64,000 nt of DNA from Thermodesulfobacteriota bacterium (GCA_963675595.2 CAXXLZ010000001.1:256001-320000), one strand, 5' to 3'; numbered from the stretch's first letter, positions 26,435-52,133 are shown. A program made the numbers and translations. The notes: generated by a model from the sequence alone, not told the origin.

Positions 26435-27679
26435 ATGGAACTGGTTCATTCCGCCGCCCAGGATATTGTGGAAGAATCTACACCCAAAACCGGCCCCGCC
26501 AAGGAAGTGGTCGCTCTGGCCATTCAAGCGACTCAGGAGGTCTTTCGATACGCGGACAAGACCCACCCGGGCGTTGCCGTGCTGTTCAAACTGGGAGTCC
26601 GACGCCGAGCCAGGGCCATGAGCTTTGGAAGCGATCCGGGCGTTGCCAGGGAGAGACTGTTCCTGAAGCAACTGGCCCCCGGCACTCGCAGGCCGGAAGA
26701 GCCTATGGGCTGCGGTCCTTACCGCATACAAGCGCCCGTGGTCGACCTGCCCTCGACGCCCAATATCTATGATCGTTTGGCGGAGGCGGTGCAGGTGGGA
26801 CGAAAATCGCCTCAGGGGCTGAAAGACATCATTGCCGATCACGAAGGCTTGGAGTCAAATTTACTCCTCGCGGCCAACCTGGGGCTGTACGGTGAGGTCG
26901 GTCGAATCGATAACCTGGAACGTGCGGCGGCGCTCATCGGCGGAGACATGCTGTATTCTCTGGCGGCTTGCTTGGTGGTGATGGAGGATTTTCGGGATGT
27001 TCCGGAAGACCTCACGGAAGCGCGGGCATTTTTCCAGCATGGTTTGGCCGCCGGGGTTCTGGCACGTACCATTGCTTCCACCACGGAATTCGGAGACTAT
27101 TTACGTTTTTTTCTGGCCGGTTTCCTGCATGATTTGGGGCGGCTCATTGTGTTCAAGAACCGGCCCGGTGGGGCTGCACGGGCTCTGGCCAAAGCTCGGG
27201 AGAAGCAGGTCTTCCTTTCGTCGGTGGAGCCCGAGGAAATCGGATATGATCATGCCACCGCGGGAGGCGCCTTTCTGCGTCGATGGAATTTCCAGAGACC
27301 GATCCGTATCGCCGTTCTTAACCATCACGTGCCGGAAATAGCCGCCTCGGTGCGGGAAAGCGCCGTGATACACTTGGCGGATGCCATGAGTCGGGCCATG
27401 GGATACGGGTTCTCCGGCGAGTTCTTCGTGCCTCCGATTCGGGAGGCGGCTTGGGAATCTCTGGATTTGAGCCCCAAGGACCTCAAGGAGATCGGTCTGA
27501 GAGCGATGGAAATTCTCGATCCCCTTCTGGGCACGGAAGAGGTCGAGATGAGTGCCTCCGTTCCGGAGGTTAAGACCTCTGCCGACCCTGAGCCGAAGCC
27601 TTCCCAGTCGGAGCCCGTGCCTCAAGAAGGTGCATCCGCCGAGGTGGAAGACGCGGAAGTTCCATTCGAGTTCTTCTGA
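26435..27679 (+). CDS. HDOD domain protein
   Basis: LLLAANLGLYG, FLAGFLHDLGRL, GYDHATAG, NHH. Confidence 0.8.
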   Translation: MELVHSAAQDIVEESTPKTGPAKEVVALAIQATQEVFRYADKTHPGVAVLFKLGVRRRARAMSFGSDPGVARERLFLKQLAPGTRRPEEPMGCGPYRIQAPVVDLPSTPNIYDRLAEAVQVGRKSPQGLKDIIADHEGLESNLLLAANLGLYGEVGRIDNLERAAALIGGDMLYSLAACLVVMEDFRDVPEDLTEARAFFQHGLAAGVLARTIASTTEFGDYLRFFLAGFLHDLGRLIVFKNRPGGAARALAKAREKQVFLSSVEPEEIGYDHATAGGAFLRRWNFQRPIRIAVLNHHVPEIAASVRESAVIHLADAMSRAMGYGFSGEFFVPPIREAAWESLDLSPKDLKEIGLRAMEILDPLLGTEEVEMSASVPEVKTSADPEPKPSQSEPVPQEGASAEVEDAEVPFEFF

Positions 27680-33174: not shown

Positions 33175-33343
33175 ATTCGACTCCTTTTGTCGGCCGGTCG
33201 CAAAACGGCTGTGATATGGCCCTTCCCGGATTCATTCATGCTGTGAAAGCTGCGTTTTGAATGCGGTTATGCTATAACTATCTGGAATTACAGGATATGC
33301 TTTGAATAAAAAATAAACCTGATTATTCGTTTGGTGAAAAAAC

Positions 33344-33370
33344 TAAAGTAATTTCGCCGTTAGTCGATGT
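33344..33370 (+). promoter_or_regulatory. Sigma28-type promoter, distal copy 1
   Basis: TAAA-N15-GTCGATGT. Confidence 0.7.
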
Positions 33371-33377
33371 GTAAAGT

Positions 33378-33460
33378 GACAACGAGATGCCAGTCTCAAA
33401 CTCCTGATTGAATGAAGAGGACAACCCCGTTCCCGTGTTGCAGGTGCCGGCACATCTGTG
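33378..33460 (+). ncRNA. Flagellin-antisense structured element, copy 1 (ends approximate)
   Basis: GAGAT-GCCA-GTCTC hairpin; CTCCTGATTGAATG antisense to the flagellin SD region; CAGGTG-CCGGCA-CATCTG hairpin. Confidence 0.6.
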
Positions 33461-34218
33461 ACCCCGGAGCCCACGAGCGTGAAGGAAGCGTTTCGCTTTC
33501 CCGCTCGGAAAGGAGATTGAAGCACCCATCCAAATAGACGCTTTCTGAAGGATTTTCAAGTGGGGTCCGGTTCAACGCCTCCCGCAGCCGGAACGGGCAG
33601 ACCGGCCGAAAGGGAACGAGGGCGTCGGAGACCCCGACGAGAGAAACGAGAACCGTAAACGGGAGTCCCGTTTGATCGAATTTCGCGTAGCGATGAAGAG
33701 ACCGAATACCCAAGGAGAACGCGGAGAATACTACCAATTGATGACGTAGCGGATTTGGCGAGGTGCTCCTCGGTCCCATCCCATGCTCGATTTCAGCGCC
33801 GCCGACCGCGGCGGGGGCGTTGCGAGGGGAGGACCCGGGCTGAGAAGTCAAGACCATCTTGAGGCGTCGAGGTCTTTGGGGAAGCTGAAAGCCGTATTCA
33901 CGGCTTTGGCGAGCCGCGAGCCTTTAGGTTTCGTTCGCGTCCACCGCCGGGGCACAATGCATTTTCAGCGGTGGGAACCTCATCCATATTATTCTGAAGC
34001 ACAATCGGCAGTCGTCTATCTAAATTCACCCAAAACTTTCGAAGCCTCGACTCAACAGGAAGTGGAATCTCCGTTCCGCCTCCTCTTATCTCGAGCAGTA
34101 CCCTCCTCTTTTGCCCTAATCCGACATCTATTGCACGAATCGGCCACCGGAAAGCAAGCTCGGGAGACCATTTGTCCCGCATAAAGGCTCCGATTGTGAA
34201 AAAAATTTGTTCTCATGC

Positions 34219-34245
34219 TAAAGTTGGTTCACAAAGTGACGATAT
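34219..34245 (+). promoter_or_regulatory. Sigma28-type promoter of flagellin 1
   Basis: TAAA-N15-GACGATAT, about 190 nt upstream of the ATG. Confidence 0.72.
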
Positions 34246-34438
34246 CCAAAGCGAAGCTGTTGAATAAATCGATGAATCCAAACCGAGATTAAAAGTTTTT
34301 TACAGATTTCGTTTTTCGAAGGGAGGAATTCGAAAGAATATAAACCGGAACATCAAAAACGTCATTTGCCGGATGACGCGACGAACAACCATGCGGGGAA
34401 GGGAGTCCCCTAAGCATTCAATCAAGGAGGATTGAGAA

Positions 34439-37285
34439 ATGGCATTATCCGTTGTTAACAATCTTGCATCTTTTTCCGCCCAGCAGGCCCTCACCAAGAG
34501 CACGTACCATCTTCAGAAGGCCCTGAATCATCTTTCCACCGGCTACCGCATCAACAGTGCGGCGGACGATCCCTCCGGCTTGGCCATTTCCGAGCGATTT
34601 CGCGGTCAGATTCGAGGCCTGGAGCGCGCCACGGCCAACGCCCTGGATGCTCAGTCCATGCTGCAGACCGCCGAAGGCTCGCTGGGGGAAACGCACGCCA
34701 TTCTTCAGCGCATGCGGGAACTGGCCGTTCAGGCGGCCAACGGCGTGCTCACCGGAAGCGACAGACAGGAACTGCAGCGCGAGGTGGATCAATTAAAGGA
34801 AGAAATCGACCGCATCGCCACGGCTACCGAGTTCAATACCAAGAAGCTTCTCGATGGATCCTCGGCCGCCCTGTGGAGCGCGGACGGATCGGATATCACC
34901 GCGATCATCCGAGGTCGCGTTGTGGAAGGAAACTACAAGCTGGTCAAGAACGCCGAGCCCCTGACCAATCATGTGTTGAAAACGGACATTTTTCGTTTGA
35001 AGGACGGAGCGATCTCACAAGAGGAGGAAGGGTCCGCCAACCAGTTGCGCTTCACCTTCGGTGGGGATGACGGTGAATTAACCGTGGCGGGCGGATCGAC
35101 CCTGAATTTCCGTTTCAACTTCGACGGTGTGAACAACATCGATATCGGGGTAACGGCGGGATCCGCGGACGGAAGCGGATTTACGGACGCCGAATACCTG
35201 GCGAGGGTGATCAACGCCAACTCGACCATCAGCCGATACGTCGAGGCCGAATTGGTTTCCGAAGGCGATATTGTTTTGCGGTCCAAAGAAGTCACGGAAA
35301 TCGGAGACAATTATACTCTGCAACTGGTCACCGCCGGGGGCGGGGCTTCCGCGGTGGCGGCGTGGCAGCCCAACATTACCAATTGGGGCGGAGATGAGTT
35401 GAGCTCGACCCAGACGAGCAACAACCTCTGGACTACCGCGGTACGATTCGCCGATTTCGATCTTGTTGTGGGGTCGACGGCATCGGGAACCATGGGAACC
35501 TTCGGCACGGACCGCGCGACGGCCGCCGAGAACAAAGTGATCCAATATGTGAGTAATGCGGCGGAGCTCGAGGGCGGCGACTACGAAATCACCACTGTGG
35601 CGGCGGATAACATCCCCAGCGGCCTGCAGGGTGCGGATGGTTTGAGCGTCGACGCCGGCTTGCTCATGGGCGCCTATATGAAGAGCTCTTCCACTGCGGA
35701 AGTCACCACGATTCAGGCCGCCGTGGACGCAAACCATTACGTGATCGTCGAGGTCACCGGGGCCGGCGGGAGCGGCGTGGTGGACCTCAAAGTCTCCTGG
35801 GATCAGGGCGCCACCTGGACCAACATCGGCAACTACCATGAGGGCGCGTCAATTAATAAGCTAGCCGGGGATCCGGATAACTGGTTCTCCTTGCAGTTCA
35901 ACGGCGATATGGCTACGGGGGACCGTTTGCTCATCGGATTGCAGAATGGAATCGCAGCGACCTCCAACGTGGCGCGGCTCACGGGTCCCGCCAACGAATG
36001 GACCAACATAGCGGATTCCGACGGTGGATGGGACCCGAGGGAGAACCTCGCCGGCGCGGACTTCCAGTATTTCAATCATGGGCTTTGGGAAGATTTGGGT
36101 GCCAACCCGGGAAGCAAAACCGATACTTTGACCTTTGCCCGCATGGACGAGGAAGGACGCGTAACCTTTGGCACGCTGGACGTCACCTGGGGCACCGATG
36201 CCAACTTCGAGAGCAGAAGTTCGAGCATCAACATTCTCCAAGGGGGAGACGTCGCCGGCTTGACCACGGAACTGTCCAAAATCGACCGGTTCTACGACGC
36301 CAATGGAAATTTTATTCTGGGCGATAACGGCAAGTGGATCGACATCTACACCGCCGCGGGAGATCAGGCTTCTTTTTATGTGGACGGCGGCGACACGGTA
36401 AAGGAGCTTGCCGATAAGATCGAGCAGATCATCAGCCTGGAGGCCACCTCTCAAAACTGGGAAGGCCTGGGATTGGGCACCGTACTGGATTCCGAAGGCG
36501 AGAATCATGTGGTGGACTTTGTTACCAACGCCACGGAGAACTCCGACGAAGCGGTCAAGGGAACCCTGCTCATTCGGTCGCCGAAACAAGGATTGAGCGG
36601 AATCCTTTACTTCAGCGCGGAAGAAGCCGTGCTCAACGCTCTGAGTCTGGCCACGATTAAGGACCCGTCCGAGGACGTGGACCCGTTGACGGTTGAGGTA
36701 TACGATGCGCACACGGGGGAATTGATCGGACAGGATACGGTAAGCGACAACGTGCTTCACGGCGTCATCCAGGGAGTTGATGTTCTGGTGGACGCCAATG
36801 TGGACATCAATTACTCCTGGAACGAAAACACCAAAGAAATCGACTTCTACAGCGCCACCGAAGACCAGATCGAATACCTGCACGTTGTGGACAACTCGGT
36901 GAATTTTCAGATCGGCGCCAACCCCGGGCAAATCATGGAAGCTCATATCTCACAGATGGATGCTTTGGGGCTCGGAATCGAAAACGTGCTGGTCGTGAAC
37001 CAAGCCACGGCAGTGGCCGCCTTGGACAGCATCGATGAGGCCATCCAACGGGTGTCTTCAGAACGCGCCCGACTGGGTGCCTATGTCAACCGACTCGATT
37101 TCACCATTTCGAACCTGGCCGTTCAGGAGGAGAATCAGATCGCAGCCGAGTCCCTGATTCGCGACCTCGACATGGCCATGGCCATCTCGGAGATGACCCA
37201 GTACCAGATTCTGCAGCAGGTGGGCGTTGCCATGTTGGCTCAGGCCAATGCCATGCCTCAGAGCCTCCTCAGCCTGCTCGGATAA
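34439..37285 (+). CDS. fliC: Flagellin 1 (948 aa)
   Basis: LSTGYRINSAADDPSGLAISE, LQRMRELAVQAAN, FQIGAN, RARLGAYVNRL, AMLAQAN. Confidence 0.96.
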   Translation: MALSVVNNLASFSAQQALTKSTYHLQKALNHLSTGYRINSAADDPSGLAISERFRGQIRGLERATANALDAQSMLQTAEGSLGETHAILQRMRELAVQAANGVLTGSDRQELQREVDQLKEEIDRIATATEFNTKKLLDGSSAALWSADGSDITAIIRGRVVEGNYKLVKNAEPLTNHVLKTDIFRLKDGAISQEEEGSANQLRFTFGGDDGELTVAGGSTLNFRFNFDGVNNIDIGVTAGSADGSGFTDAEYLARVINANSTISRYVEAELVSEGDIVLRSKEVTEIGDNYTLQLVTAGGGASAVAAWQPNITNWGGDELSSTQTSNNLWTTAVRFADFDLVVGSTASGTMGTFGTDRATAAENKVIQYVSNAAELEGGDYEITTVAADNIPSGLQGADGLSVDAGLLMGAYMKSSSTAEVTTIQAAVDANHYVIVEVTGAGGSGVVDLKVSWDQGATWTNIGNYHEGASINKLAGDPDNWFSLQFNGDMATGDRLLIGLQNGIAATSNVARLTGPANEWTNIADSDGGWDPRENLAGADFQYFNHGLWEDLGANPGSKTDTLTFARMDEEGRVTFGTLDVTWGTDANFESRSSSINILQGGDVAGLTTELSKIDRFYDANGNFILGDNGKWIDIYTAAGDQASFYVDGGDTVKELADKIEQIISLEATSQNWEGLGLGTVLDSEGENHVVDFVTNATENSDEAVKGTLLIRSPKQGLSGILYFSAEEAVLNALSLATIKDPSEDVDPLTVEVYDAHTGELIGQDTVSDNVLHGVIQGVDVLVDANVDINYSWNENTKEIDFYSATEDQIEYLHVVDNSVNFQIGANPGQIMEAHISQMDALGLGIENVLVVNQATAVAALDSIDEAIQRVSSERARLGAYVNRLDFTISNLAVQEENQIAAESLIRDLDMAMAISEMTQYQILQQVGVAMLAQANAMPQSLLSLLG

Positions 37286-37307
37286 CCTGCGGTCCGCGAC
37301 GCAATTC

Positions 37308-37344
37308 AAGGCGGGGCTCCGTTTCGGAGCCCCGCCTTCTTTTT
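37308..37344 (+). terminator. Intrinsic terminator of flagellin 1
   Basis: AAGGCGGGGCTCC-GTTTC-GGAGCCCCGCCTT then CTTTTT. Confidence 0.88.
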
Positions 37345-37693
37345 CGTAACGGTTCTCCTCCACGCCCGCCCATTTCTTCTCGGGATACCTTCGGATTCCG
37401 ATTTCGGTGACATCTCGAGCCGCCGCCACTCGTGCTTCGGCCGGACGCCGGCACACGAAGCGCTTCCCAGCCTCCGCGTCGTCCTCCGTTCCTGCATTCG
37501 TGAGAGTTGAAATCGGTACAACCCCTTAATTCCCGTCGCCGTTGACGTTATGGGCGCAGGTTGAGGCACGGCGAGGCCTCGAAGACCCGTCTGAATCGGT
37601 TGTCTTGGTGGCGTTTTCCCGGCGCTAAGGTATGCGATGGAGTAAAATTTCAATTTATGAACAAAGTCGAACACGATTTTTCTTTTATAAATG

Positions 37694-37720
37694 TAAAGTA
37701 TTTTCGCCGTTTGACGATGT
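37694..37720 (+). promoter_or_regulatory. Sigma28-type promoter, distal copy 2
   Basis: TAAA-N15-GACGATGT; spacer nearly identical to copies 1 and 3. Confidence 0.72.
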
Positions 37721-37726
37721 AAGAAT

Positions 37727-37825
37727 CAAACAGGTAATGCCACCTGAACTCCTTGATTGAATGCGGATTGGGAAGCCGAAAACTCCCGGGTGCCGGCACA
37801 TCCGGAAGAAAAAGGCGAAGTTAAC
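37727..37825 (+). ncRNA. Flagellin-antisense structured element, copy 2 (ends approximate)
   Basis: CAGGT-AATGCC-ACCTG hairpin; 37749-37773 is the exact reverse complement of 42277-42301; CCGGGTG-CCGGCA-CATCCGG hairpin. Confidence 0.68.
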
Positions 37826-38057
37826 CGTCACGACACACAAGAAACATCGCAACGGATGGGAGGATGATCCATCTTTCGTTAAGTCGTCGGATTCGGGCCG
37901 CCCGGGGTCGGGCATCAAACTCCGTGCAATGCTTTTCCGGCCTCCGGGATAGTCGTTAGGAACGGCACGAACCCCGAATATTCAAATCTTTCTCTCCTTT
38001 TTGATCAGCCGACAGTCCCCGGTTGAGCGCAAAATGCGCTTTTCCGCGCCTTGACAC

Positions 38058-38084
38058 TCAAGTTCGTCCGTTTCACACCGATAC
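38058..38084 (+). promoter_or_regulatory. Sigma28-type promoter of flagellin 2
   Basis: TCAA-N15-ACCGATAC, at a position equivalent to the flagellin 3 promoter. Confidence 0.6.
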
Positions 38085-38345
38085 AATTTGCGGGTAACTG
38101 CGGGGATCGCACCCGTCTCAAGCGGACGTGCATGCGATTTCCCTATCGTCTTTTGGTGATGCACGTTGATCCGAGCACCCTTGCCGGAGGGAGAGCGGAG
38201 GCGATGTGCATTGCTGCGGAAAGGGGGGGATAAGCCAACTAGAGCGCACTATTCCGTTGAGAATCGCCCCATAAGGGGACATCTCACGATGCCTTAGACG
38301 AGGGAATGGATTCCCGATCTGAGTTCAATCAAGGAGGATTGATTC

Positions 38346-41162
38346 ATGGCATTGACTGTTGTCAATAATATTGCTTCATTCGCTGCTCAGAAGGCCCTCA
38401 GTTCGAGTACCACTCACCTGCAGAACGCCCTGAACAGCCTTTCCACCGGCCTCCGCATCAACAGCGCGGCGGACGACCCGTCCGGACTGGCGATTTCCGA
38501 GCGGTTCCGCAGCCAGATTCGAGGCTTGGAACGCGCCACGTCCAACGCCTTGGACGCTCAGTCCATGCTGCAAACCGCGGAAGGCTCCCTCGGAGAAACC
38601 CACGCCATCCTGCAACGTATGCGCGAACTGGCGGTTCAAGCGGCCAACGGCGTGTTGACCGCAAGCGACCGGCAGGAAGTTCAGCGCGAAGTGGACCAGC
38701 TCAAAGAAGAAATCAACCGCATCGCCAACACCACCGAGTTCAACACCAAGAAACTGCTGGACGGTTCCTCCACGGCCCTTTGGAGCGCGAACAATTCCGA
38801 CATTGAAGCGGTCATTCGCGGAAAGGTGGCCGAAGGCAACTACAAGCTGGTGAAGAGTGCGGAGCCGCTGAGCAACCAGGTACTGAAGACGGATATCTTC
38901 CGGCTGAAAGACGGGGCCATCTCCCAGGCGGAAGAGGGTTCTCCGAACCAGATGCGGTTCACTTTCGGCGGATCGGATGCGACAATAGACGGAACCGGGG
39001 CGTCGACATTGACGTTCCGGTTCAACTTCGACGGCGTGAACAACATAGACGTATCGTTGAACTCGGCGTCGGGAGACGCCGCCCTCTTAACCGACGCGCG
39101 GTATTTGGTGGATGCCCTCAACGCCAACGCGACCATCAGCCAATACGTCGAAGTGGAGCTGGTGTCCAACTCGGACATTATCATTCGGTCCAAGGGGGTA
39201 ACGGACGAAAGCGACAATTATACCCTTCAGCTGGTGACCGGCGGAGGCGGTGCGTCGGCCGTGGCGGCGTGGCAGGCCAACATCACCAACTGGAGCGGAG
39301 ATGAGCTGAGTTCGACCCAGGCGACCAACAACCTCTTTACTTCCGCGGTCCGTTTCGCGGATTTCGATCAGATCGAAGGTCAGGTGAACTCGGGAGTGAC
39401 GGGCACCTTCGGAACGGACCGAACCACGGCCGCGCAGAACAAGGTGATCCAGTATGTGAGCAACGCCGAGAACCTCGAAGGGGGCGATTACGAAATCCTT
39501 ACCCTGTCGGCGAACGACTTTCCGAGCGGTACGGCGGGCGGAATCGGCGCTGTGGACTCCGCGTGGATTTTGGGCGCTCATCGACAAAGTTCGTCCACGG
39601 GAGAGATCGTGACCCTTACGGCGAGCGTTGACGAGAACCAGTACGTCATCGTCGAAGTGACCGGCGCAGGGGGCAGCGGCGTGGTGGACCTGAAGGTTTC
39701 CTGGGACCAGGGAGAAACCTGGACCAATGTTGGGAACTATCATGATGGGACTTCCATCAATAAGACTACCGGAGACCCGGCCAACTGGTTCTCCATGGAC
39801 TTGAACGGTGACTTGGCCACCGGCGACCGGTTCCTTTTCGGTCTGCAGGACCAATTGGATACGACCTCCAACTATGCCAGGCTGACGGGTCCCGCCAACG
39901 ATTGGTCGACCAGCTTGACCGCGGATCTGACGGAAGACTACGAGAACTTCAACCACGGGTTATGGCAGGACCTGGGAGCCAATCCGGGTGAGAAGACCCA
40001 TACCCTGACGCTTGCGAGCATGGACGAGGAAGGACGGGTGACCTTCGGCACCCTCGATGCCACCTGGGGAATGGATGACGATTTCGAGAGCCGAAGCTCG
40101 AACATCAAGATTCTCGAGGGCGGCGACGTTGCCGGTCTGACCACGGAGTTGTCCAAGATCGATCGATTCTACGACTCCAGCGGGAACTTCGTCCTGGGCG
40201 ACAGCGGCAAATGGATCGATGTCTACACCGCCGACGGAGACAACGCGTCGTTCTACGTGGACGGCGGTGATACGGTTCAGGAGCTTGCCGACAAGCTGGA
40301 ACAGATCATCAGCCTAACCTCGACTTCCCAAAACTGGGATGGTCTGGGGCTGGGCACGGTGCTGGACTCCGACGGCGAGAACCACGTGGTGGATTTCGTT
40401 ACCAACGCCACGGAGAACTCCGACGAAGCCGTCGAAGGAACCATGATCATTCGTTCGCCCAAACAAGGGGTCAACGGCTACCTCTATTTCAGTGCGGAGG
40501 AAGACCTGCTCAACGCCCTGAGTTTGGCCACCATCCAGGACCCCAAGGAAGACATCGATCCTCTCACGGTCACCGTATACAACGCCCACACGGGCGAGTT
40601 GATCGGCGAGGACACGGTGAGCGACAACGTCCTGCACGGAGTCATCCAGGGTGTGGACGTAATGGTGGACGCCAATGTGGACATCTCTTACTCCTGGAAC
40701 GATGATACTCGAGAGATCGACTTCTACAGTTCGGAAGGAGTGCAGGAAGAGTACCTCCACGTGGTGGACAATTCGGTGAACTTCCAGATCGGCGCCAACC
40801 CGGGCCAAGTGATGGAAGCCTACATCACACAGATGGATACCGTGGGATTGGGCGTTCAAAACGTTCTGGTGGTGAACCAGGAGACGGCCTCCGATGCCAT
40901 GTCCACCATCGACGACGCCATCCAAAGGGTGTCCTCGGAACGCGCCAGGCTGGGCGCTTACGTGAACCGTCTCGACTTTACCATCTCGAACCTGGCGGTT
41001 CAGGAGGAAAACCAGATCGCGGCGGAATCTTTGATCCGCGACCTGGATATGGCCAAGGCCATTTCCGAAATGACCCAGTACCAGGTGTTGCAGCAGGTGG
41101 GTGTGGCCATGCTGGCCCAGGCCAATACCTTGCCTCAGATGGTGCTGTCCCTACTCCGGTAA
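38346..41162 (+). CDS. fliC: Flagellin 2 (938 aa)
   Basis: Conserved flagellin N- and C-terminal motifs; paralog of its neighbours. Confidence 0.96.
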   Translation: MALTVVNNIASFAAQKALSSSTTHLQNALNSLSTGLRINSAADDPSGLAISERFRSQIRGLERATSNALDAQSMLQTAEGSLGETHAILQRMRELAVQAANGVLTASDRQEVQREVDQLKEEINRIANTTEFNTKKLLDGSSTALWSANNSDIEAVIRGKVAEGNYKLVKSAEPLSNQVLKTDIFRLKDGAISQAEEGSPNQMRFTFGGSDATIDGTGASTLTFRFNFDGVNNIDVSLNSASGDAALLTDARYLVDALNANATISQYVEVELVSNSDIIIRSKGVTDESDNYTLQLVTGGGGASAVAAWQANITNWSGDELSSTQATNNLFTSAVRFADFDQIEGQVNSGVTGTFGTDRTTAAQNKVIQYVSNAENLEGGDYEILTLSANDFPSGTAGGIGAVDSAWILGAHRQSSSTGEIVTLTASVDENQYVIVEVTGAGGSGVVDLKVSWDQGETWTNVGNYHDGTSINKTTGDPANWFSMDLNGDLATGDRFLFGLQDQLDTTSNYARLTGPANDWSTSLTADLTEDYENFNHGLWQDLGANPGEKTHTLTLASMDEEGRVTFGTLDATWGMDDDFESRSSNIKILEGGDVAGLTTELSKIDRFYDSSGNFVLGDSGKWIDVYTADGDNASFYVDGGDTVQELADKLEQIISLTSTSQNWDGLGLGTVLDSDGENHVVDFVTNATENSDEAVEGTMIIRSPKQGVNGYLYFSAEEDLLNALSLATIQDPKEDIDPLTVTVYNAHTGELIGEDTVSDNVLHGVIQGVDVMVDANVDISYSWNDDTREIDFYSSEGVQEEYLHVVDNSVNFQIGANPGQVMEAYITQMDTVGLGVQNVLVVNQETASDAMSTIDDAIQRVSSERARLGAYVNRLDFTISNLAVQEENQIAAESLIRDLDMAKAISEMTQYQVLQQVGVAMLAQANTLPQMVLSLLR

Positions 41163-41674
41163 ACTGAAACCATAATGATCCATAGGGGGCCCCGCATGAC
41201 CGGGCTCCCGCAACGGATCGAGTCCGGTGTCGAGGCGAACCGCCTCGGCATCGTTCTCTCCAAACCCAATTCGGGACCAAAACCGGTTCAAGGCCATTCC
41301 CTCCCCGAAGCCTGCCCGGTTCGCCCGGATCACCTTCGGCTCCCCAGCTGCGGAGCGGGTTTCGTCACGGAGCCGCGCTCCACCTTTTCGACATCCCCTC
41401 CATATGGCTCCTCAGGAGCGCTCTTCTTGTCGTTTCTCGCAAAGTGCGCCACCGTTATCATTTCATGGATCTAAGAATAAGCAAGGGGTGAGGTAGACGC
41501 CTCATTTCGTTAATAGTGGTTGTAGTGCCGACGATTGACCCTCCATTCACGAAACGCCTGAAACCTTAGGTTTCTATCTGTGGTTTCGGTGCCGGCTTTG
41601 CGCTCCTTATCATGATGACGGAGTGCGATTTGAAGTCATGGTGAAACCTAAAGACGATTTTTTTCATATGAAGG

Positions 41675-41701
41675 TAAAGTAATTTCGCCGGTTGACGATA
41701 T
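41675..41701 (+). promoter_or_regulatory. Sigma28-type promoter, distal copy 3
   Basis: TAAA-N15-GACGATAT. Confidence 0.72.
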
Positions 41702-41707
41702 ACAAAT

Positions 41708-41806
41708 CAAACAGGTAATGCCACCTGAACTCCTTGATTGAATGCAGATTGGGAAGCCCGCAACTCCCGGGTGCCGGCACACCCGGAAGAAAAAGGCCGA
41801 GTTAAC
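41708..41806 (+). ncRNA. Flagellin-antisense structured element, copy 3 (ends approximate)
   Basis: CAGGT-AATGCC-ACCTG; CTCCTTGATTGAATGCAGATTGGGA (41730-41754); CCGGGTG-CCGGCA-CACCCGG. Confidence 0.68.
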
Positions 41807-42031
41807 GCATCAACCCCGTGACGAACCTAGGTGAAGAAATCCACAGGAGGTGTTTTTCTCAAAACCATAAATCGCCGGCCCGTCACAGCCCATCCAGAGG
41901 CGTCGGGGTTCCCGTTCCATGCCCTTCTATTTTCAGGGTTGACGGGAGGTCGCTCGCGCTCTGGTACCTCCCCGCCTTACGTTCAACCCCCCTCGGGCGA
42001 ACGCAAGATACGTTTTCCTATGCCCTGAAGC

Positions 42032-42058
42032 TAAAGTTCCGCCTTTCCATGCCGATGC
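42032..42058 (+). promoter_or_regulatory. Sigma28-type promoter of flagellin 3
   Basis: TAAA-N15-GCCGATGC, close to the FliA consensus TAAA-N15-GCCGATAA. Confidence 0.8.
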
Positions 42059-42310
42059 TATAACCGACCGACTATCGGATTTGCACGAGTCTCGTGAAGA
42101 CGTGCGTGCAGATTTCCATCTCCGAGGCGCGAGCCGCTGATCCGTGGACCCTTGCCGGAGGGCGAACGGGGATGACAAGCGCCGCGGCGAAAGGGGGGAT
42201 GCCCGGAAATATGCTGATTCTTGGGGGACGTCCCATGGGAGGGAAGTCTCTCAAAACCTCAGACAAGGGAATGGAATCCCAATCCGCATTCAATCAAGGA
42301 GGATTGATTC

Positions 42311-45157
42311 ATGGCATTGACTGTTGTCAACAACATTGCTTCCTTTGCTGCTCAGAAGGCGCTCAGCTCGAGTACCACTCACCTGCAGAACGCCCTGAAC
42401 AGCCTTTCCACCGGCCTTCGCATCAACAGCGCGGCGGACGATCCGTCCGGACTGGCGATTTCCGAGCGGTTCCGCAGCCAGATTCGGGGCTTGGAACGCG
42501 CCACGTCCAACGCCTTGGACGCCCAGTCCATGCTGCAAACCGCGGAAGGTTCTCTCGGAGAAACCCACGCCATCCTGCAACGTATGCGCGAACTGGCGGT
42601 TCAGGCGGCCAACGGCGTGTTGACCGCAAGCGACCGGCAGGAAGTTCAGCGCGAAGTGGACCAGCTCAAGGAAGAGATCAACCGCATCGCCAACACCACC
42701 GAGTTCAACACCAAAAAGCTACTGGACGGCTCCTCCACGGCCCTCTGGAGCGCGAACAATTCCGACATTGAAGCGGTGATTACGGGAAAGGTGTCCGAAG
42801 GCAACTACAAACTGGTGAAGAGCGCCGAGCCGCTCAGTAACCATGTGTTGAAGACGGACATTTTCCGGCTGAAAGACGGAGCCATCTCGCAGGCCGAAGA
42901 GGGGTCCGCGAACCAGATGCGCCTCACTTTCGGTGGAGACGACGGAGAAGTGACCGTCGCAGGCGGATCGACCCTGAACTTCCGGTTCAACTTCGACGGT
43001 GTAAACAACATCGATATCGGAGTAACCGCAGGATCCGCCGACGGCACGGGCTTTACGGACGCTGAATATCTGGCGCGGGCCATCAACGCCCACTCGACCA
43101 TCAGCCAGTACGTGGAGGCGGAACTGGTGTCCGAGGGCGATATCATTATTCGCGCCAAGGATGTGACGGACGACAGCGACAACTACACGCTGCAAATGGT
43201 GACCGCCGGAGGCGGCGCGTCGGCCGTGGCGGCGTGGCAGCCCAACATCACCAATTGGGGCGGTGATGAACTTAGCTCGACCCAGACGAGCAATAACCTC
43301 TGGACTTCCGCGGTCCGTTTCGCGGATTTCGATCAGATCGAAGGTACGGTCAACTCGGGAGTCACGGGCACCTTCGGTACGGATCGGACCACCGCCGCCG
43401 AGAACAAGGTGATCCAGTACGTCAGCAACGCCGCCGATCTCGAAGCGGGCGACTATCAGATCACAACGGTGGCAACGGGCGACATCCCCAGCGGTTTGCA
43501 GAGTACGGACGGTCTGACCGTGGATCAGGGTCTGCTCATGGGCGCTTATCTCACGAGCACGTCCACGGCGGAAGTCACGACGATTCAGGCGGCCGTGGAT
43601 GAGAATCAGTACGTTATCGTCGAGGTGACGGGAGCCGGCGGCAGCGGCGCGGTGGACCTGAAGGTTTCCTGGGACCAGGGCGCCACATGGTCCAGTGTCG
43701 GGAACTACCACGAAGGAACCTCCATCAACAAGGTCGCCGGAGACCCGGACAACTGGTTCACGCTGGAATTCACCGGGGACATGGCGACCGGAGACCGCTT
43801 GCTTATCGGGCTCCAGAACGGGATTGCAGCGACTTCCAACGTGGCGAGGCTGACCGGTCCGGCCAACGAATGGACCAATGTAACGGATTCCGACGGAGAT
43901 TGGGACCCGAGGGAAAACCTGGCCGGGGCGGATTACCAAACCTTCAATCATGGGCTGTGGGAAGACCTGGGGGCCAATCCCGGTGAGAAGACCCATACCC
44001 TGACGTTTGCGAGCATGGACGATGAAGGGCGGGTGACCTTCGGCACCCTCGACGCCACCTGGGGCGCGGATGACGACTTCGAGAGCCGAAGCTCGAGCAT
44101 CAAGATTCTCGAGGGCGGCGACGTCGCCGGTCTGACCACGGAGTTGTCCAAGATCGATCGGTTCTACGACTCCAGCGGGAACTTCGTCCTGGGCGACAGC
44201 GGCAAATGGATCGATATCTACACCGCAGAAGGAGACAACGCGTCGTTCTATGTGGACGGCGGCGACACGGTGCAGGAGCTTGCCGACAAGCTGGAGCAGA
44301 TCATCAGTCTCACCTCGACTTCCCAGAACTGGGATGGTCTGGGGCTGGGCACGGTGCTGGACTCCGACGGCGAGAACCACGTGGTGGATTTCGTTACCAA
44401 CGCCACGGAGAACTCCGACGAAGCCGTCGAAGGAACCATGATCATTCGTTCGCCCAAACAAGGGGTCAACGGCTACCTCTATTTCAGTGCGGAGGAAGAC
44501 GTACTCAACGCCCTGAGTTTGGCCACCATCCAGGACCCCAAAGAAGACATCGATCCTCTCACGGTCACCGTATACAACGCCCACACGGGTGAGTTGATCG
44601 GTGAGGATACGGTGAGCGACAACGTCCTGCACGGAGTCATCCAGGGTGTGGACGTGATGGTGGACGCCAATGTGGACATCTCCTACTCCTGGAACGAGGA
44701 TACTCGAGAGATCGACTTCTTCAGTTCGGAAGGAGTGCAGGAAGAGTACCTCCACGTGGTGGACAATTCGGTGAACTTCCAGATCGGCGCCAACCCGGGC
44801 CAAGTGATGGAAGCCTATATCACACAGATGGACACCGTGGGATTGGGCGTTCAGAACGTTCTGGTGGTGAACCAGGCGACGGCCTCCGATGCCATGTCCA
44901 CCATCGACGACGCCATCCAGAAGGTGTCCTCGGAACGCGCCAGGCTCGGCGCCTACGTGAACCGTCTCGACTTCACCATCTCGAACCTGGCGGTTCAGGA
45001 GGAAAACCAGATCGCGGCGGAATCTTTGATCCGCGACCTGGATATGGCCAAGGCCATTTCCGAAATGACCCAGTATCAGGTGTTGCAGCAGGTGGGTGTG
45101 GCCATGCTGGCCCAGGCCAACACGTTGCCTCAGATGGTGCTGTCCTTACTCCGGTAA
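42311..45157 (+). CDS. fliC: Flagellin 3 (948 aa)
   Basis: Conserved flagellin termini; patchwork similarity to flagellins 1 and 2. Confidence 0.96.
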   Translation: MALTVVNNIASFAAQKALSSSTTHLQNALNSLSTGLRINSAADDPSGLAISERFRSQIRGLERATSNALDAQSMLQTAEGSLGETHAILQRMRELAVQAANGVLTASDRQEVQREVDQLKEEINRIANTTEFNTKKLLDGSSTALWSANNSDIEAVITGKVSEGNYKLVKSAEPLSNHVLKTDIFRLKDGAISQAEEGSANQMRLTFGGDDGEVTVAGGSTLNFRFNFDGVNNIDIGVTAGSADGTGFTDAEYLARAINAHSTISQYVEAELVSEGDIIIRAKDVTDDSDNYTLQMVTAGGGASAVAAWQPNITNWGGDELSSTQTSNNLWTSAVRFADFDQIEGTVNSGVTGTFGTDRTTAAENKVIQYVSNAADLEAGDYQITTVATGDIPSGLQSTDGLTVDQGLLMGAYLTSTSTAEVTTIQAAVDENQYVIVEVTGAGGSGAVDLKVSWDQGATWSSVGNYHEGTSINKVAGDPDNWFTLEFTGDMATGDRLLIGLQNGIAATSNVARLTGPANEWTNVTDSDGDWDPRENLAGADYQTFNHGLWEDLGANPGEKTHTLTFASMDDEGRVTFGTLDATWGADDDFESRSSSIKILEGGDVAGLTTELSKIDRFYDSSGNFVLGDSGKWIDIYTAEGDNASFYVDGGDTVQELADKLEQIISLTSTSQNWDGLGLGTVLDSDGENHVVDFVTNATENSDEAVEGTMIIRSPKQGVNGYLYFSAEEDVLNALSLATIQDPKEDIDPLTVTVYNAHTGELIGEDTVSDNVLHGVIQGVDVMVDANVDISYSWNEDTREIDFFSSEGVQEEYLHVVDNSVNFQIGANPGQVMEAYITQMDTVGLGVQNVLVVNQATASDAMSTIDDAIQKVSSERARLGAYVNRLDFTISNLAVQEENQIAAESLIRDLDMAKAISEMTQYQVLQQVGVAMLAQANTLPQMVLSLLR

Positions 45158-48194: not shown

Positions 48195-48986
48195 TTACAC
48201 GTTTCTATGGATAGGAGTGAAGAAAACCTTTTCCGAAGGCTTCGCGTCCAGAAACCCGGCGACGGGACTCAGGTCGGCCAAGCGACGGGTAAGGTTGGGC
48301 CAAAACCCCTCTCCACCCAAGTGGAGCCACCCGCCGATGTGGACGAGAACACCGCCTGATGCGGCCTTTGTCCGAGCCCAAAGACGCCGGATTTTACGCT
48401 CCATGGTATCGGTCCTTCGATTCCATTCCACCGACGTATCGCCATCCATAAGAATCAGCTCCCAAGGCGCAGACTTTCCGTGAAAGCGGACGGCCACTTG
48501 CTTTCTGAGGTTTTCGAAACTCTCGGATGGGTGACGGGGCGCGAGTCTAAGCATGGCCTCGAGATTGGGCATCGAGATCAGTTCTTCGAGAAATGGGAGC
48601 TTGTTTTTTGAGGATTCCGAGTCGTCCGTGCAAACCACCGTTGTAGACCTGGAATGGGCGTAGTCCCGGCTCGCGCTGAACTCGAAAGGCAGGGCGATCT
48701 GGTTCCTGATGTTCCGAAATGGCTCGAGCTGGAGGATGGACTCGATCTCAAGGTTTCTTTTTTTTGCCAGAAGACGCAGCCGCTCATCGAGGAGTTGCAG
48801 TTGTCTACGGGCGTGCTTCATTCGGAAACGGACTGCATAGGGACTGGTTTCGACACTGACGATCGTGGGACCGATGCGGTCGAGCATTCGCTTAAGCAGT
48901 TCTTCCCCTCTCGGGTCCCTGTGGATCGTACCAAGAAGGAAAAGACGGGCTTCCGGAACGGCTGTGGAGTCCGCCGAAGGGCTCAA
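48195..48986 (-). CDS. Hypothetical protein
   Basis: 263-aa ORF overlapping the HDOD gene stop; LLGTIHRDP and HIGGWLH motifs. Confidence 0.65.
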   Translation of the reverse strand: MSPSADSTAVPEARLFLLGTIHRDPRGEELLKRMLDRIGPTIVSVETSPYAVRFRMKHARRQLQLLDERLRLLAKKRNLEIESILQLEPFRNIRNQIALPFEFSASRDYAHSRSTTVVCTDDSESSKNKLPFLEELISMPNLEAMLRLAPRHPSESFENLRKQVAVRFHGKSAPWELILMDGDTSVEWNRRTDTMERKIRRLWARTKAASGGVLVHIGGWLHLGGEGFWPNLTRRLADLSPVAGFLDAKPSEKVFFTPIHRNV

Positions 48987-49825
48987 GTCTTCAGGAGGAA
49001 GGGCGTTCGTTTGAGCTCTCGCTTCAGTTCGGCGAGGCTGCGATCCATGACGTCCTCCGTCAATCCCGCAATTTCCAGAACGTCGCGAAACTCACGGAAG
49101 CTCCAATTATCCACGCCGAGTCCGATGCCGGCCAGCTTGCAGCATCGGTCGGCGAGATAGATCAGGGCCGTGATGGGGTGCCCTTTCCGAACTTCCTCAA
49201 TGGTGTGGTGAGTGCGTATGGGTTCACTGATGCTTGACGGGAGCTGCCATTTATCGGCCACCTCTCCCCCCACGGCGGCGTGGTCGATACCGATGATCTC
49301 TCGTTCCGCTTCCACGAAAGTGTAATTCTCTTCAGTAACCAAGTGCATAATTTCCCGAAATCGGTCTTGGACAAAAGAGTTCAGAACGACCTTGCCGATG
49401 TCGTGCAGCAGGCCGGCGGTGAAGAGGGCCGAGGGGTCCGCCTCAGGATTGGAAGCACCCAGAATTTGCGCCAGGAGGGCGCAGGAAACGGAGTGACGCC
49501 ACATCTCCCGAGCCGCCATTCCGTACCCGGGAACATCGGTGGTGTAGTAACTTAGAGACCCTCCGATGACGGCCAGCTCGATCACCTCCTGTGGGCCCAG
49601 AAGCTGAACGGCGCGCCGAAGAGAGCTGATTTCCTCCTGAAAGCCGAAATATCCCGAGTTACATAGCCGCAGCACCGTGGCTGTGATGTTTTGGTCGTAC
49701 TTGATCACATCCACAATCTCTCCCGGAGGAGCGTTCCGGCTCCGCATCAGATCGAAGGCTCTGTGAACCGTCGCCGGAAAAGGAGGAAGACTTTTGATGG
49801 AATAGAGTATTTTCTGACCCACCAT
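48983..49825 (-). CDS. HDOD domain protein
   Basis: SLPPFP, DQNITATVLRLCNSGYFG, WRHS, AGLLHDIGK, GIDHAAVG. Confidence 0.92.
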   Translation of the reverse strand: MVGQKILYSIKSLPPFPATVHRAFDLMRSRNAPPGEIVDVIKYDQNITATVLRLCNSGYFGFQEEISSLRRAVQLLGPQEVIELAVIGGSLSYYTTDVPGYGMAAREMWRHSVSCALLAQILGASNPEADPSALFTAGLLHDIGKVVLNSFVQDRFREIMHLVTEENYTFVEAEREIIGIDHAAVGGEVADKWQLPSSISEPIRTHHTIEEVRKGHPITALIYLADRCCKLAGIGLGVDNWSFREFRDVLEIAGLTEDVMDRSLAELKRELKRTPFLLKT

Positions 49826-51246: not shown

Positions 51247-51753
51247 CTAGGGCGCTTTGACGAAGAGTTCGTCGATGAGAAGACGATTGGTGTCCGAGAG
51301 GTCTTCGAACTCGACGGCAACGCCGATTCGATCGCGGTGGATATTGACTCGCAATATTTTGCCTTTAATCTCCATAGGTTCGGACATCATGGGATGTTGG
51401 AGATAAACCAGTATATCCGGCAGCCCCTGGTCTTTGTTCCATTCGGGTAATCTGGTCGAAGTGTTGGTTTCCATGAACAGTCCACCGGAACTGATGTCCT
51501 TGATCACGGACACGTGGATTTCTTCGGAAGCCGGTAGTCGCCATTTGACCGGGGCCACGAGTCTTTTTCGTGTGTGTCTGCGACGCTCTTGAGCGGGCTC
51601 TCTGACCCAGGAAACCCCGCGATCTTCAAGGTAGTCGGTAATTGTTTTCAGGATCAAGGAGGCGAGGGAACGTCGTTCCTTGCGAGCGATCTTTTCCAGA
51701 GCCTGCCGGATTTCAGTGGGCATTCGAAAAGAGTAGACAGGATCGTAAGACAC
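51247..51753 (-). CDS. Ribbon-helix-helix / PilZ fusion protein
   Basis: GTG start with AAGGGGA SD; YSFRMPTEIRQALEKIARKERRSLASLILK (RHH-like); ERRRHTR and DISSGG PilZ motifs. Confidence 0.82.
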   Translation of the reverse strand: MSYDPVYSFRMPTEIRQALEKIARKERRSLASLILKTITDYLEDRGVSWVREPAQERRRHTRKRLVAPVKWRLPASEEIHVSVIKDISSGGLFMETNTSTRLPEWNKDQGLPDILVYLQHPMMSEPMEIKGKILRVNIHRDRIGVAVEFEDLSDTNRLLIDELFVKAP

Positions 51754-52133
51754 GTAGTTTTCCCCTTGTATTCGTTTGGGATCAGAAGCAACGACGCTTG
51801 GCCGTAAGTTGTCACAATTTGCATGACAGATCAAGGAAAAAGTGCGGCGATCCGTGTGCGGCGGATTCAACCGTCGGAGAGGAGCCGGGCGTTGCGACAC
51901 TCATCGGTTTTTTGGAAAGGAATCCGTTCGGAAACCATGCCCCACCCTTGAAAACCTTTCCCCGAAGCATTAAAATTTTATAGTACGATTTTTGTAGGGC
52001 GGCAGCCCTCTTTTTTTCGATTGGAGATTGTTCCCGTGGGAAGTACCTCGAAGGCCGGTCGAGCCGGCCTTTGCGCACAGACAACCGGAACCTTCAGAGC
52101 AAACAGGACTGAACGTTAAAGGAGAGTAACGCG

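Follow-up and report, generated by a model that had tools for sequence, protein, structure and literature searches.

In Escherichia coli, stem-loops of the small RNA (sRNA) OxyS pair with the fhlA mRNA at two separated sites, one of which sequesters the ribosome-binding site while the second is needed for efficient regulation (Argaman and Altuvia 2000, as cited in PMC2946933). Here we describe a locus of a Thermodesulfobacteriota bacterium for which a related two-site logic is proposed. It consists of three tandem giant flagellin genes, all on the + strand, within a 64-kb stretch of DNA (the whole stretch that was analysed, hereafter the window; its genome, G000, is the sole member of its genus in the genome collection used). 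Upstream of each of the three genes lies a short block with its own σ28-like promoter, which we call a cassette. The predicted cassette RNA is complementary to the flagellin leader at two places, over the Shine-Dalgarno (SD) sequence and start codon and, distally, through a CCGGCA motif that matches TGCCGG in the leader. OxyS-fhlA is the system nearest in logic, in that two separated contacts, one of them over the ribosome-binding site, were computed in all six of the cassette-leader pairs compared. OxyS is unlinked to its target, is helped by Hfq and has its second site within the coding region. In contrast, the cassette adjoins its target, its second site lies 75-165 nucleotides (nt) upstream of the AUG, its anti-SD part spans 14-25 nt rather than a short loop, and no Hfq was found in the G000 genome, which is 98% complete.

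Base-pairing RNAs are also described for flagellar genes. FlaX of Vibrio cholerae base-pairs with flaB flagellin mRNA at several sites, prevents 30S binding and alters filament composition (PMC11879080); in pairing at more than one site of a flagellin mRNA so as to keep the 30S subunit off, FlaX is close to what we propose for the cassette. FlaX is cut from the flaA 3′ untranslated region (UTR) and is associated with ProQ, whereas the cassette has its own promoter upstream of its target, shows no sequence relation to FlaX and comes from another phylum, and no ProQ was found in G000. UTR-derived, FliA-dependent RNAs of E. coli (PMC10578931) and CJnc170 of Campylobacter jejuni, a base-pairing RNA that depends on the late flagellar σ factor (PMC11187230), tune flagellar synthesis. 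These RNAs have other origins and targets, and none is described in those sources as an inverted copy of a flagellin ribosome-binding region. Rfam gave no match at gathering score over the whole window, and at an expect value (E) of ≤ 1 the 9.1 kb from 33250 to 42400 matched only Ysr141 (E 0.58), on the opposite strand, inside a coding region and irrelevant here.

Flagellin leaders are further subject to a protein-RNA mechanism, the CsrA-FliW control described for hag of Bacillus subtilis and flaA of C. jejuni (PMC4894983). The leaders of this locus are alike in carrying GGA both in the loop of an upstream hairpin and in an SD hairpin, in a genome where csrA and fliW are adjacent; the cassette and the UGCCGG hairpin would form an extra layer present on some paralogues only. 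Literature searches at the level of abstracts found no description of an upstream RNA that joins an inverted translation-initiation region (TIR) to a conserved loop pair at flagellin genes.

Loop-loop pairing as such is familiar from CopA/CopT and RNAI/RNAII, in which complementary loops of 6-7 nt are proposed as the first contacts and no chaperone is needed; in both systems one stretch of DNA gives rise to the two RNAs, each from a different strand, and they are complementary over their full length. A first-pass annotation of the window had drawn on this analogy, one defining feature of which is missing here. Both RNAs would come from the + strand, with 0.3-1 kb between them, and they match in patches only, as a chain of helices of 4-16 base pairs (bp). 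With its two RNAs encoded on one strand rather than across the two strands of a locus, the element falls outside the CopA/CopT class. A YUNR turn is likewise not conserved in the cassette or leader loops.

Conservation of the cassette-leader module

Our analysis established the anatomy of the module in sequence, its conservation, the complementarity of its two parts and, as predictions, its hairpins. Relatives fetched by flagellin protein comprised two genomes of the same family (G001 and G002, with flagellins ~63% identical); a metagenome locus close to G001 (L060) came from the pattern scan described below. The full module was present in all six cassette-bearing flagellin loci, which represent four lineages (three loci in G000 and one each in G001, G002 and L060), and in every one the cassette immediately precedes the matching flagellin and shares its strand. 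In G001 and G002 the module runs in the order σ28-like site, 18 nt from CGAT to ATGCC, CTCCT, CCGGCAC, proximal σ28-like site and GUGCCGG hairpin; the distance from the predicted start to CCGGCA was 64-70 nt in all six loci. The first-pass annotation had predicted, from the window alone, that CCGGCA and TGCCGG form kissing loops, and had named lack of conservation in homologous loci as grounds for rejecting this; those loci bear the pair out: CCGGCAC and (U/G)UGCCGG were kept in G001, G002 and L060 while the stems and nearly all of the flanks differed. Retention of the loop pair across lineages whose stems and flanks differ makes a selected contact likely, and the sequence comparison suggests that CCGGCA:UGCCGG is probably a real, selected second RNA-RNA contact.

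Listings of shared hexamers singled out the same pair. Only AACTCC, CCGGCA and CGGCAC were common to the six cassettes, in a listing that was blind to complementarity. The five complete leaders had 17 hexamers in common, 16 of them in the SD hairpin and start region and the seventeenth being TGCCGG, and CCGGCA/TGCCGG was the sole complementary hexamer pair common to all cassettes and leaders. TGCCGG occurred in the leader at six of six loci with a cassette and, within 400 nt upstream of the flagellin, at none of seven without one; these cassette-less controls were L007, L008, L009, L010, L011 and two other giant flagellins of G000, L067 and L068.

The part of the cassette that faces the SD sequence and start codon changed together with its target. 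The three cassette units of the window can be aligned with each other over ~100 nt, after which they diverge, and the first ~45 nt of the predicted RNA form an imperfect inverted copy of the flagellin TIR (the anti-TIR). Duplex prediction placed cassette-leader helices over the start codon (AUGCCA/UGGCAU), the SD sequence (CUCCUU.../...AAGGAG) and the 3′ arm of the upstream GGA hairpin. The duplex z-scores ranged from −3.5 to −10.7, and in each of five pairs none of 100 shuffles was as good, the shuffles being mononucleotide ones and so more lenient than dinucleotide shuffles; the fold stability of whole cassette RNAs was not unusual (z −0.5 to −0.8). Cassettes 2 and 3 are complementary to each other's leaders as well as to their own. 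Between genera, the anti-TIR varied with its own target, the pair reading GUAACGCUUUG/CAAAGCGUUAC in G001, UGGCGAUGUG/CACAUCGCCG in G002 and CUCCUUGAUUGAAUGC/GCAUUCAAUCAAGGAG in G000. The contiguous Watson-Crick match between the loops extended over 6 bp in the three G000 loci, 7 bp in G001 and L060 and 8 bp in G002, with duplex energies of −9.9, −12.6 and −15.0 kcal/mol, respectively. In G002, an additional GCCGG of the leader and an additional CCGGC of the cassette are predicted to pair in a further helix of 11 bp (counting G·U pairs).

Structure prediction supported the cassette loops at five of six loci and the leader loops in part. CCGGCA formed a 6-nt hairpin loop at the annotated sites of all three window cassettes, in both minimum free energy (MFE) and centroid folds, with unpaired probabilities of 0.95-1.00, and over all six loci the motif was unpaired (probability at least 0.95) in five cassettes. 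The leader motif lies where the first-pass annotation had placed it, on the + strand of all three leaders and between the same stem flanks (GTCAT-T...ATGAC in unit 1, CCCT...AGGG in the others). The leader hairpins are predicted to form as annotated, but with smaller loops, since the MFE fold closes U·G pairs and leaves GCC (unit 1) or GCCG (units 2 and 3), the outer bases of the G000 motif having unpaired probabilities of 0.04-0.48. The contacts run antiparallel and colinear, as had been proposed, the order being anti-start (ATGCC), anti-SD (CTCCT..) and CCGGCA in the cassette and TGCCGG, SD and AUG in the leader, each read 5′ to 3′.

The stems around these loops vary. Leader stems were GUCAU/AUGAC, CCCU/AGGG, AGGUUCC/GGAACCU, GGUUUC/GAAACC and GUCCC/GGGAC across the lineages (for example, GGTTCC/GGAACC in G001 versus GGTTTC/GAAACC in L060), and in the leader helix three pairs were changed on both sides, giving a covariation score of 0.333 that 1 of 500 shuffles reached. 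Cassette stems were CAGGUG/CAUCUG, CCGGGUG/CAUCCGG, CCGGGUG/CACCCGG and the bulged CACG-GGU/ACC-CGUG. Inside the window, the hexamer match by itself is not beyond chance and is weak evidence: CCGGCA/TGCCGG had 73 matches on both strands of the 64 kb versus 48.3 expected, TGCCGG would occur by chance in a leader of 190-280 nt with a probability of ~0.10-0.15, and the three units, being paralogous copies, are not independent trials.

Searches beyond these loci returned few cassettes. With cassette 2 as query, a plain DNA search of 41 genomes matched G000 alone, apart from 20 nt in G020 that were taken as chance. In 95 genomes of the class, a covariance model (R1) gave full matches in G000 (three), G001 (one) and G002 (one), all of one family, and the remaining genomes gave promoter-only matches or E values of at least 0.05. 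The cassette model found no cassette at 37 flagellin loci from other phyla, where L015, L021, L032 and L039 gave weak matches (11-15 bits, E 0.08-0.9). All genome and metagenome contigs were also scanned with a pattern of promoter, anti-start and anti-SD written without the CCGGCA motif. Seven stretches were found in genome contigs, one of them real (L053, the same as the L006 locus of G002) and six with no adjoining flagellin. Five were found in metagenome contigs, of which the new locus L060 was real, L059 and L061 were chance matches, and L062 and L063 carried an L055-type promoter before an unrelated gene. At the Bradymonadales-like loci L055, L062 and L063, a σ28-like promoter and ATGCC..CCTCC precede an unrelated cysteine-rich protein that looks secreted, an arrangement taken as chance. 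A second organism (B, sequencing runs X4-X6), ~96-98% identical over 33300-42400, has the same locus; among the small indels listed for it, those at 34108, 37529-37579, 38132 and 38223 all fall outside both hairpin loops.

Alternative explanations for the conserved contacts

With moderate confidence, we interpret the module as a two-site antisense system in which the cassette RNA pairs with the leader over the SD sequence and AUG and through a distal loop-loop contact, blocking flagellin translation. Several points weigh against this interpretation. The four lineages belong to one family and the G000 copies are paralogous, so that the counts of six of six and none of seven are not independent events. 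Should the cassette have originated by inverted copying of the leader, its complementarity came by descent, and only its retention argues for function. Neither loop sequence varies, and covariation from loop to loop therefore lends no support; on a column alignment, the cassette helix had one pair changed on both sides, not beyond shuffles, in a count limited by register shifts. The cassette motif of G002 is predicted to pair with a downstream CCGGC (unpaired probability 0.00-0.17), and, although leader hairpins are present at all six loci, the loops of those in G000 are predicted to hold only 3-4 nt. The loop pair had been put forward as the nucleation contact; a conserved complementary contact is likely real, but the SD sequence, in a 7-nt hairpin loop facing a largely unpaired anti-SD, is an equally plausible first contact. 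Metatranscriptome contigs (0.08 share) touched leader 2 and conserved coding parts and left the cassettes uncovered, which is uninformative either way. Finally, a search for intrinsic terminators in the interval from cassette hairpin to proximal promoter gave none in units 2 and 3 and one weak candidate only in unit 1. With no convincing terminator, a discrete sRNA is putative and the same contacts could form inside one long mRNA.

That the contacts act within a single molecule, the upstream promoter giving a long, self-locked flagellin mRNA and the proximal promoter an unlocked one, is an alternative that we regard as unlikely but worth weighing in full. The missing terminator favors it, as does the position of every cassette directly upstream of its matched flagellin on the same strand. 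In G001, the anti-TIR 11-mer complements the leader of its neighbor, and the leader 11-mer was not seen in the paralogue L008 (read by eye). The cassette promoter, moreover, is homologous to the direct promoters of cassette-less paralogues, as indicated by partial matches of the cassette model of 28.8, 20.6 and 12.8 bits at L008, L009 and L067 (28.8 bits being that of L008). However, the DNA that separates cassette and proximal promoter lacks conservation even when units 2 and 3 are compared, and its length ranges from 183 to 772 nt. At all six loci, the proximal promoter is preceded by DNA rich in C and poor in G (C/G 1.4-2.8), which would suit a Rho-dependent stop of an untranslated RNA, and the match of cassettes 2 and 3 to each other's leaders suggests action in trans.

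It is improbable, in our judgment, that the two motifs are instead conserved separately, whether as a CCGG-hairpin site for a protein or RNase, as a CsrA-type GGA of the leader (GCCGGA / GCCGGGA) or as part of a small basic peptide. GGA does follow GCCG in all six leaders, and self-complementary CCGG lies within both motifs; this leader GGA, however, is in the 3′ arm of the stem, whereas CsrA usually meets GGA in a hairpin loop, a rule drawn from hag and flaA. A small open reading frame (ORF) reads CCGGCAC in the same frame (x-Arg-His) in all six cassettes (33412-33540, 37761-37952 and 41742-41834 in the window). Its peptides of 19-63 amino acids are very basic, but they have only x-Arg-His in common and differ threefold in length, and no SD sequence precedes the start codon. 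Substitutions between cassettes 2 and 3 and between G001 and L060 are mostly amino-acid-changing (codon reading by eye, uncounted), and one such change is exactly the one that repairs a G·U stem pair to G-C. The ORF is probably incidental, with a dual-function RNA as the alternative. Separate conservation would also need a coincidence, namely that the sole conserved leader hexamer outside the TIR is the complement of the cassette core (2/4096, ~5e-4).

An element acting at the DNA level, with the inverted repeats as recombination or operator sites (for example, an invertible promoter for phase variation or a palindromic operator, GTGCCGGCAC), seems to us highly improbable. The repeats are inverted and flank the proximal promoter, and in each of the three G000 cassettes GTGCCGGCAC reads as a perfect palindrome of 10 bp, but this palindrome is absent from G001 (GTACCGGCAC) and from G002. 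The orientation is the same in all six loci, and a strand change is seen at none of 11 joints listed for four runs, in contigs that hide rare variants. No recombinase was found among 26 neighboring ORFs scanned with Pfam, the repeats carry indels and mismatches of the kind that RNA pairing tolerates, and the covariation of the hairpin stem points to RNA. We give no more credence to a relic, that is, a decaying and functionless partial inverted duplication of a flagellin 5′ end with the hexamer present by chance or descent, since, although the minus strand of the cassette reads as a flagellin SD sequence with a truncated start and the hexamer is common in this genome, the cassette is kept in three genera whose intergenic flanks are otherwise unalignable, with a conserved promoter, fixed spacing (18 nt from CGAT to ATGCC and 64-70 nt to CCGGCA) and a lineage-specific leader match.

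Proposed mechanism and origin of the cassettes

Under the two-site antisense reading, the cassette RNA would be made from its own σ28-type promoter and run to a presumed 3′ end, and its hairpin, ~65-70 nt from the RNA start, would present CCGGCA(C). The flagellin mRNA would come from the second, proximal σ28-type promoter, with a leader hairpin presenting (U/G)UGCCGG. One contact would cover the SD sequence and start codon and, acting in trans, would block ribosome entry and repress translation; the other, a distal GC-rich loop-loop pairing of 6-8 bp, may speed or stabilize binding. The loop pair could serve as an "address" that stays fixed as the anti-SD part and its own target drift in step. 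The failure to find Hfq and ProQ in G000 makes structure-guided, chaperone-free pairing attractive. With regulator and target under a shared σ factor, the cassette could act as a paralogue-specific brake or threshold on flagellin translation, on top of CsrA/FliW control.

The minus strand of the cassette reads as a degenerate flagellin SD sequence and truncated start, for which an inverted partial duplication is the simplest origin. Together with the first bases transcribed from them (..GACGAT..AAAGCAAACAG..), the cassette promoters resemble those from which cassette-less flagellin paralogues are directly expressed, and a second class (..CCGAT..CGACC..) comprises the proximal promoters of cassette-bearing loci. 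The likeness to the paralogue promoters suggests that an ordinary flagellin promoter was copied and that the cassette arose downstream of the copy. A similar origin by inverted duplication is known for some plant microRNA genes. We tentatively propose, as a fuller account that may well prove wrong, that inverted duplication of the target's ribosome-binding region and of its leader hairpin, placed behind a flagellin-promoter copy, gave rise to a regulatory RNA gene, that this gene has co-evolved with its target in several genera and that, through the fixed GC-rich kissing-loop address and the drifting anti-SD part, it selects, free of chaperones, which of five giant flagellins are translated.

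If these proposals hold, the cassettes would represent a family of RNAs, not described before, by which giant flagellins are controlled post-transcriptionally in Thermodesulfobacteriota, with a bearing on how bacteria with several flagellin paralogues set filament composition. They would also offer a natural case for how an antisense regulator arises from its target, for how regulator and target stay matched as both drift, and for fast RNA-RNA finding in a bacterium without Hfq and ProQ. A loop pair that does not vary, next to an anti-SD part that co-varies, offers a direct experimental handle.

Features of the flagellin locus

The positions of the promoters, cassette elements, leader hairpins and flagellin genes are collected in Table 1. 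A search of the 64 kb for TAAAGT-N15-CGAT, compared with the σ28 consensus, found six sites versus 2.41 expected, a number reached by 1 of 100 shuffles. All six are on the + strand, three at the cassettes and three proximal to the flagellins, the latter 220-290 nt before the start codons. The consensus-like site at each cassette may reflect FliA dependence of the cassettes. A σ54 promoter reading of GGCAC / TTGC was rejected for its wrong GG-to-GC spacing (judged by eye).

Table 1. Coordinates of the cassette, leader and flagellin features in the window
Feature	Position	Strand	Evidence and remarks
Cassette 1 σ28-like promoter (TAAAGT-N15-CGAT)	33344..33368	+	Pattern search; predicted start near 33378
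Cassette 1 anti-TIR, inverted imperfect copy of flagellin 1 start/SD	33378..33414	+	Predicted helices of cassette 1-37 with leader 163-204; z −10.7, 0/100 shuffles as low
Cassette 1 hairpin CAGGTG-CCGGCA-CATCTG	33441..33458	+	Fold; loop 33447-33452, unpaired probability 0.95
Flagellin 1 proximal σ28-like promoter	34219..34243	+	Pattern search
Leader 1 hairpin GTCAT-TTGCCGG-ATGAC	34361..34377	+	Sequence and fold; TGCCGG 34367-34372
Leader 1 GGA hairpin (GGGGA-AGGGA-GTCCCC) and SD hairpin (TCAATC-AAGGAGG-ATTGA)	34395..34435	+	Sequence and fold; CsrA-type look
Giant flagellin 1, 948 amino acids	34439..37285	+	Flagellin_N 1.7e-40, Flagellin_C 3.1e-24
Cassette 2 σ28-like promoter	37694..37718	+	Pattern search
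Cassette 2 anti-TIR	37729..37774	+	37749-37773 complementary 25/25 to leader 3 (42277-42301)
Cassette 2 hairpin CCGGGTG-CCGGCA-CATCCGG	37786..37805	+	Fold; loop 37793-37798, unpaired probability 1.00
Flagellin 2 proximal σ28-like promoter	38058..38082	+	Pattern search; 1 mismatch
Leader 2 hairpin CCCT-TGCCGG-AGGG	38178..38191	+	Sequence and fold; TGCCGG 38182-38187
Leader 2 GGA hairpin (GGGAA-TGGA-TTCCC) and SD hairpin	38302..38342	+	Sequence and fold
Giant flagellin 2, 938 amino acids	38346..41162	+	Flagellin_N and Flagellin_C
Cassette 3 σ28-like promoter	41675..41699	+	Pattern search
Cassette 3 anti-TIR	41710..41754	+	Predicted 16-bp and 8-bp helices onto leader 3
Cassette 3 hairpin CCGGGTG-CCGGCA-CACCCGG	41767..41786	+	Fold; loop 41774-41779; one G·U of cassette 2 changed to G-C
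Flagellin 3 proximal σ28-like promoter	42032..42056	+	Pattern search
Leader 3 hairpin CCCT-TGCCGG-AGGG	42149..42162	+	Sequence and fold; TGCCGG 42153-42158
Leader 3 GGA hairpin and SD hairpin	42267..42307	+	Sequence and fold
Giant flagellin 3, 948 amino acids	42311..45157	+	Flagellin_N and Flagellin_C

A GGGRA-xGGA-UYCCC hairpin and a UCAAUC-AAGGAGG-AUUGA SD hairpin were present in all examined flagellin leaders of the family, with or without a cassette (including L008, L009 and L067), and look like CsrA-type sites, in the two-site layout known from hag and flaA. The leaders show the features of CsrA-regulated flagellin leaders, namely GGA in the loop of a predicted leader hairpin and at the SD sequence, in a genome with csrA and fliW, and are candidate CsrA targets. 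In G000, csrA (87.2 bits) and fliW (130.7 bits) lie on another contig, beside a flgK/flgL-like gene. Since the GGA hairpins occur in all leaders and the cassette on some paralogues, the RNA layer would sit atop CsrA/FliW control for some paralogues only.

Each of the three flagellins of the window contains Flagellin_N and Flagellin_C (Pfam), and G000 has five giant flagellin genes in total, encoding ~940-990 amino acids, the other two being L067 (C2) and L068 (C1). In a protein tree of 12 rows, none dropped and two of them ending at ~641 amino acids where the locus ends, the flagellins clustered by genome and not by orthology or cassette presence, a pattern that suggests concerted evolution of the coding regions, recent duplications or repeated loss of the module.

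The interval between cassette and proximal promoter is 772 nt in unit 1 (33459-34218) and 258-265 nt in units 2 and 3; two ORFs of the unit 1 region, 33783-34184 (+) and 33396-33857 (−), had no Pfam match. A strong intrinsic terminator follows flagellin 1 at 37308-37338 (a 14-bp stem with 11 G-C pairs, then a T-run), and none comparable was among those listed after flagellins 2 and 3. A flaG gene follows the three-flagellin cluster. On its flanks the cluster has two proteins with HDOD/HD domains and a PilZ protein that carries an Arc-like DNA-binding domain (26435-27679, 48983-49825 and 51247-51900), which may be motility regulators linked to cyclic di-GMP.

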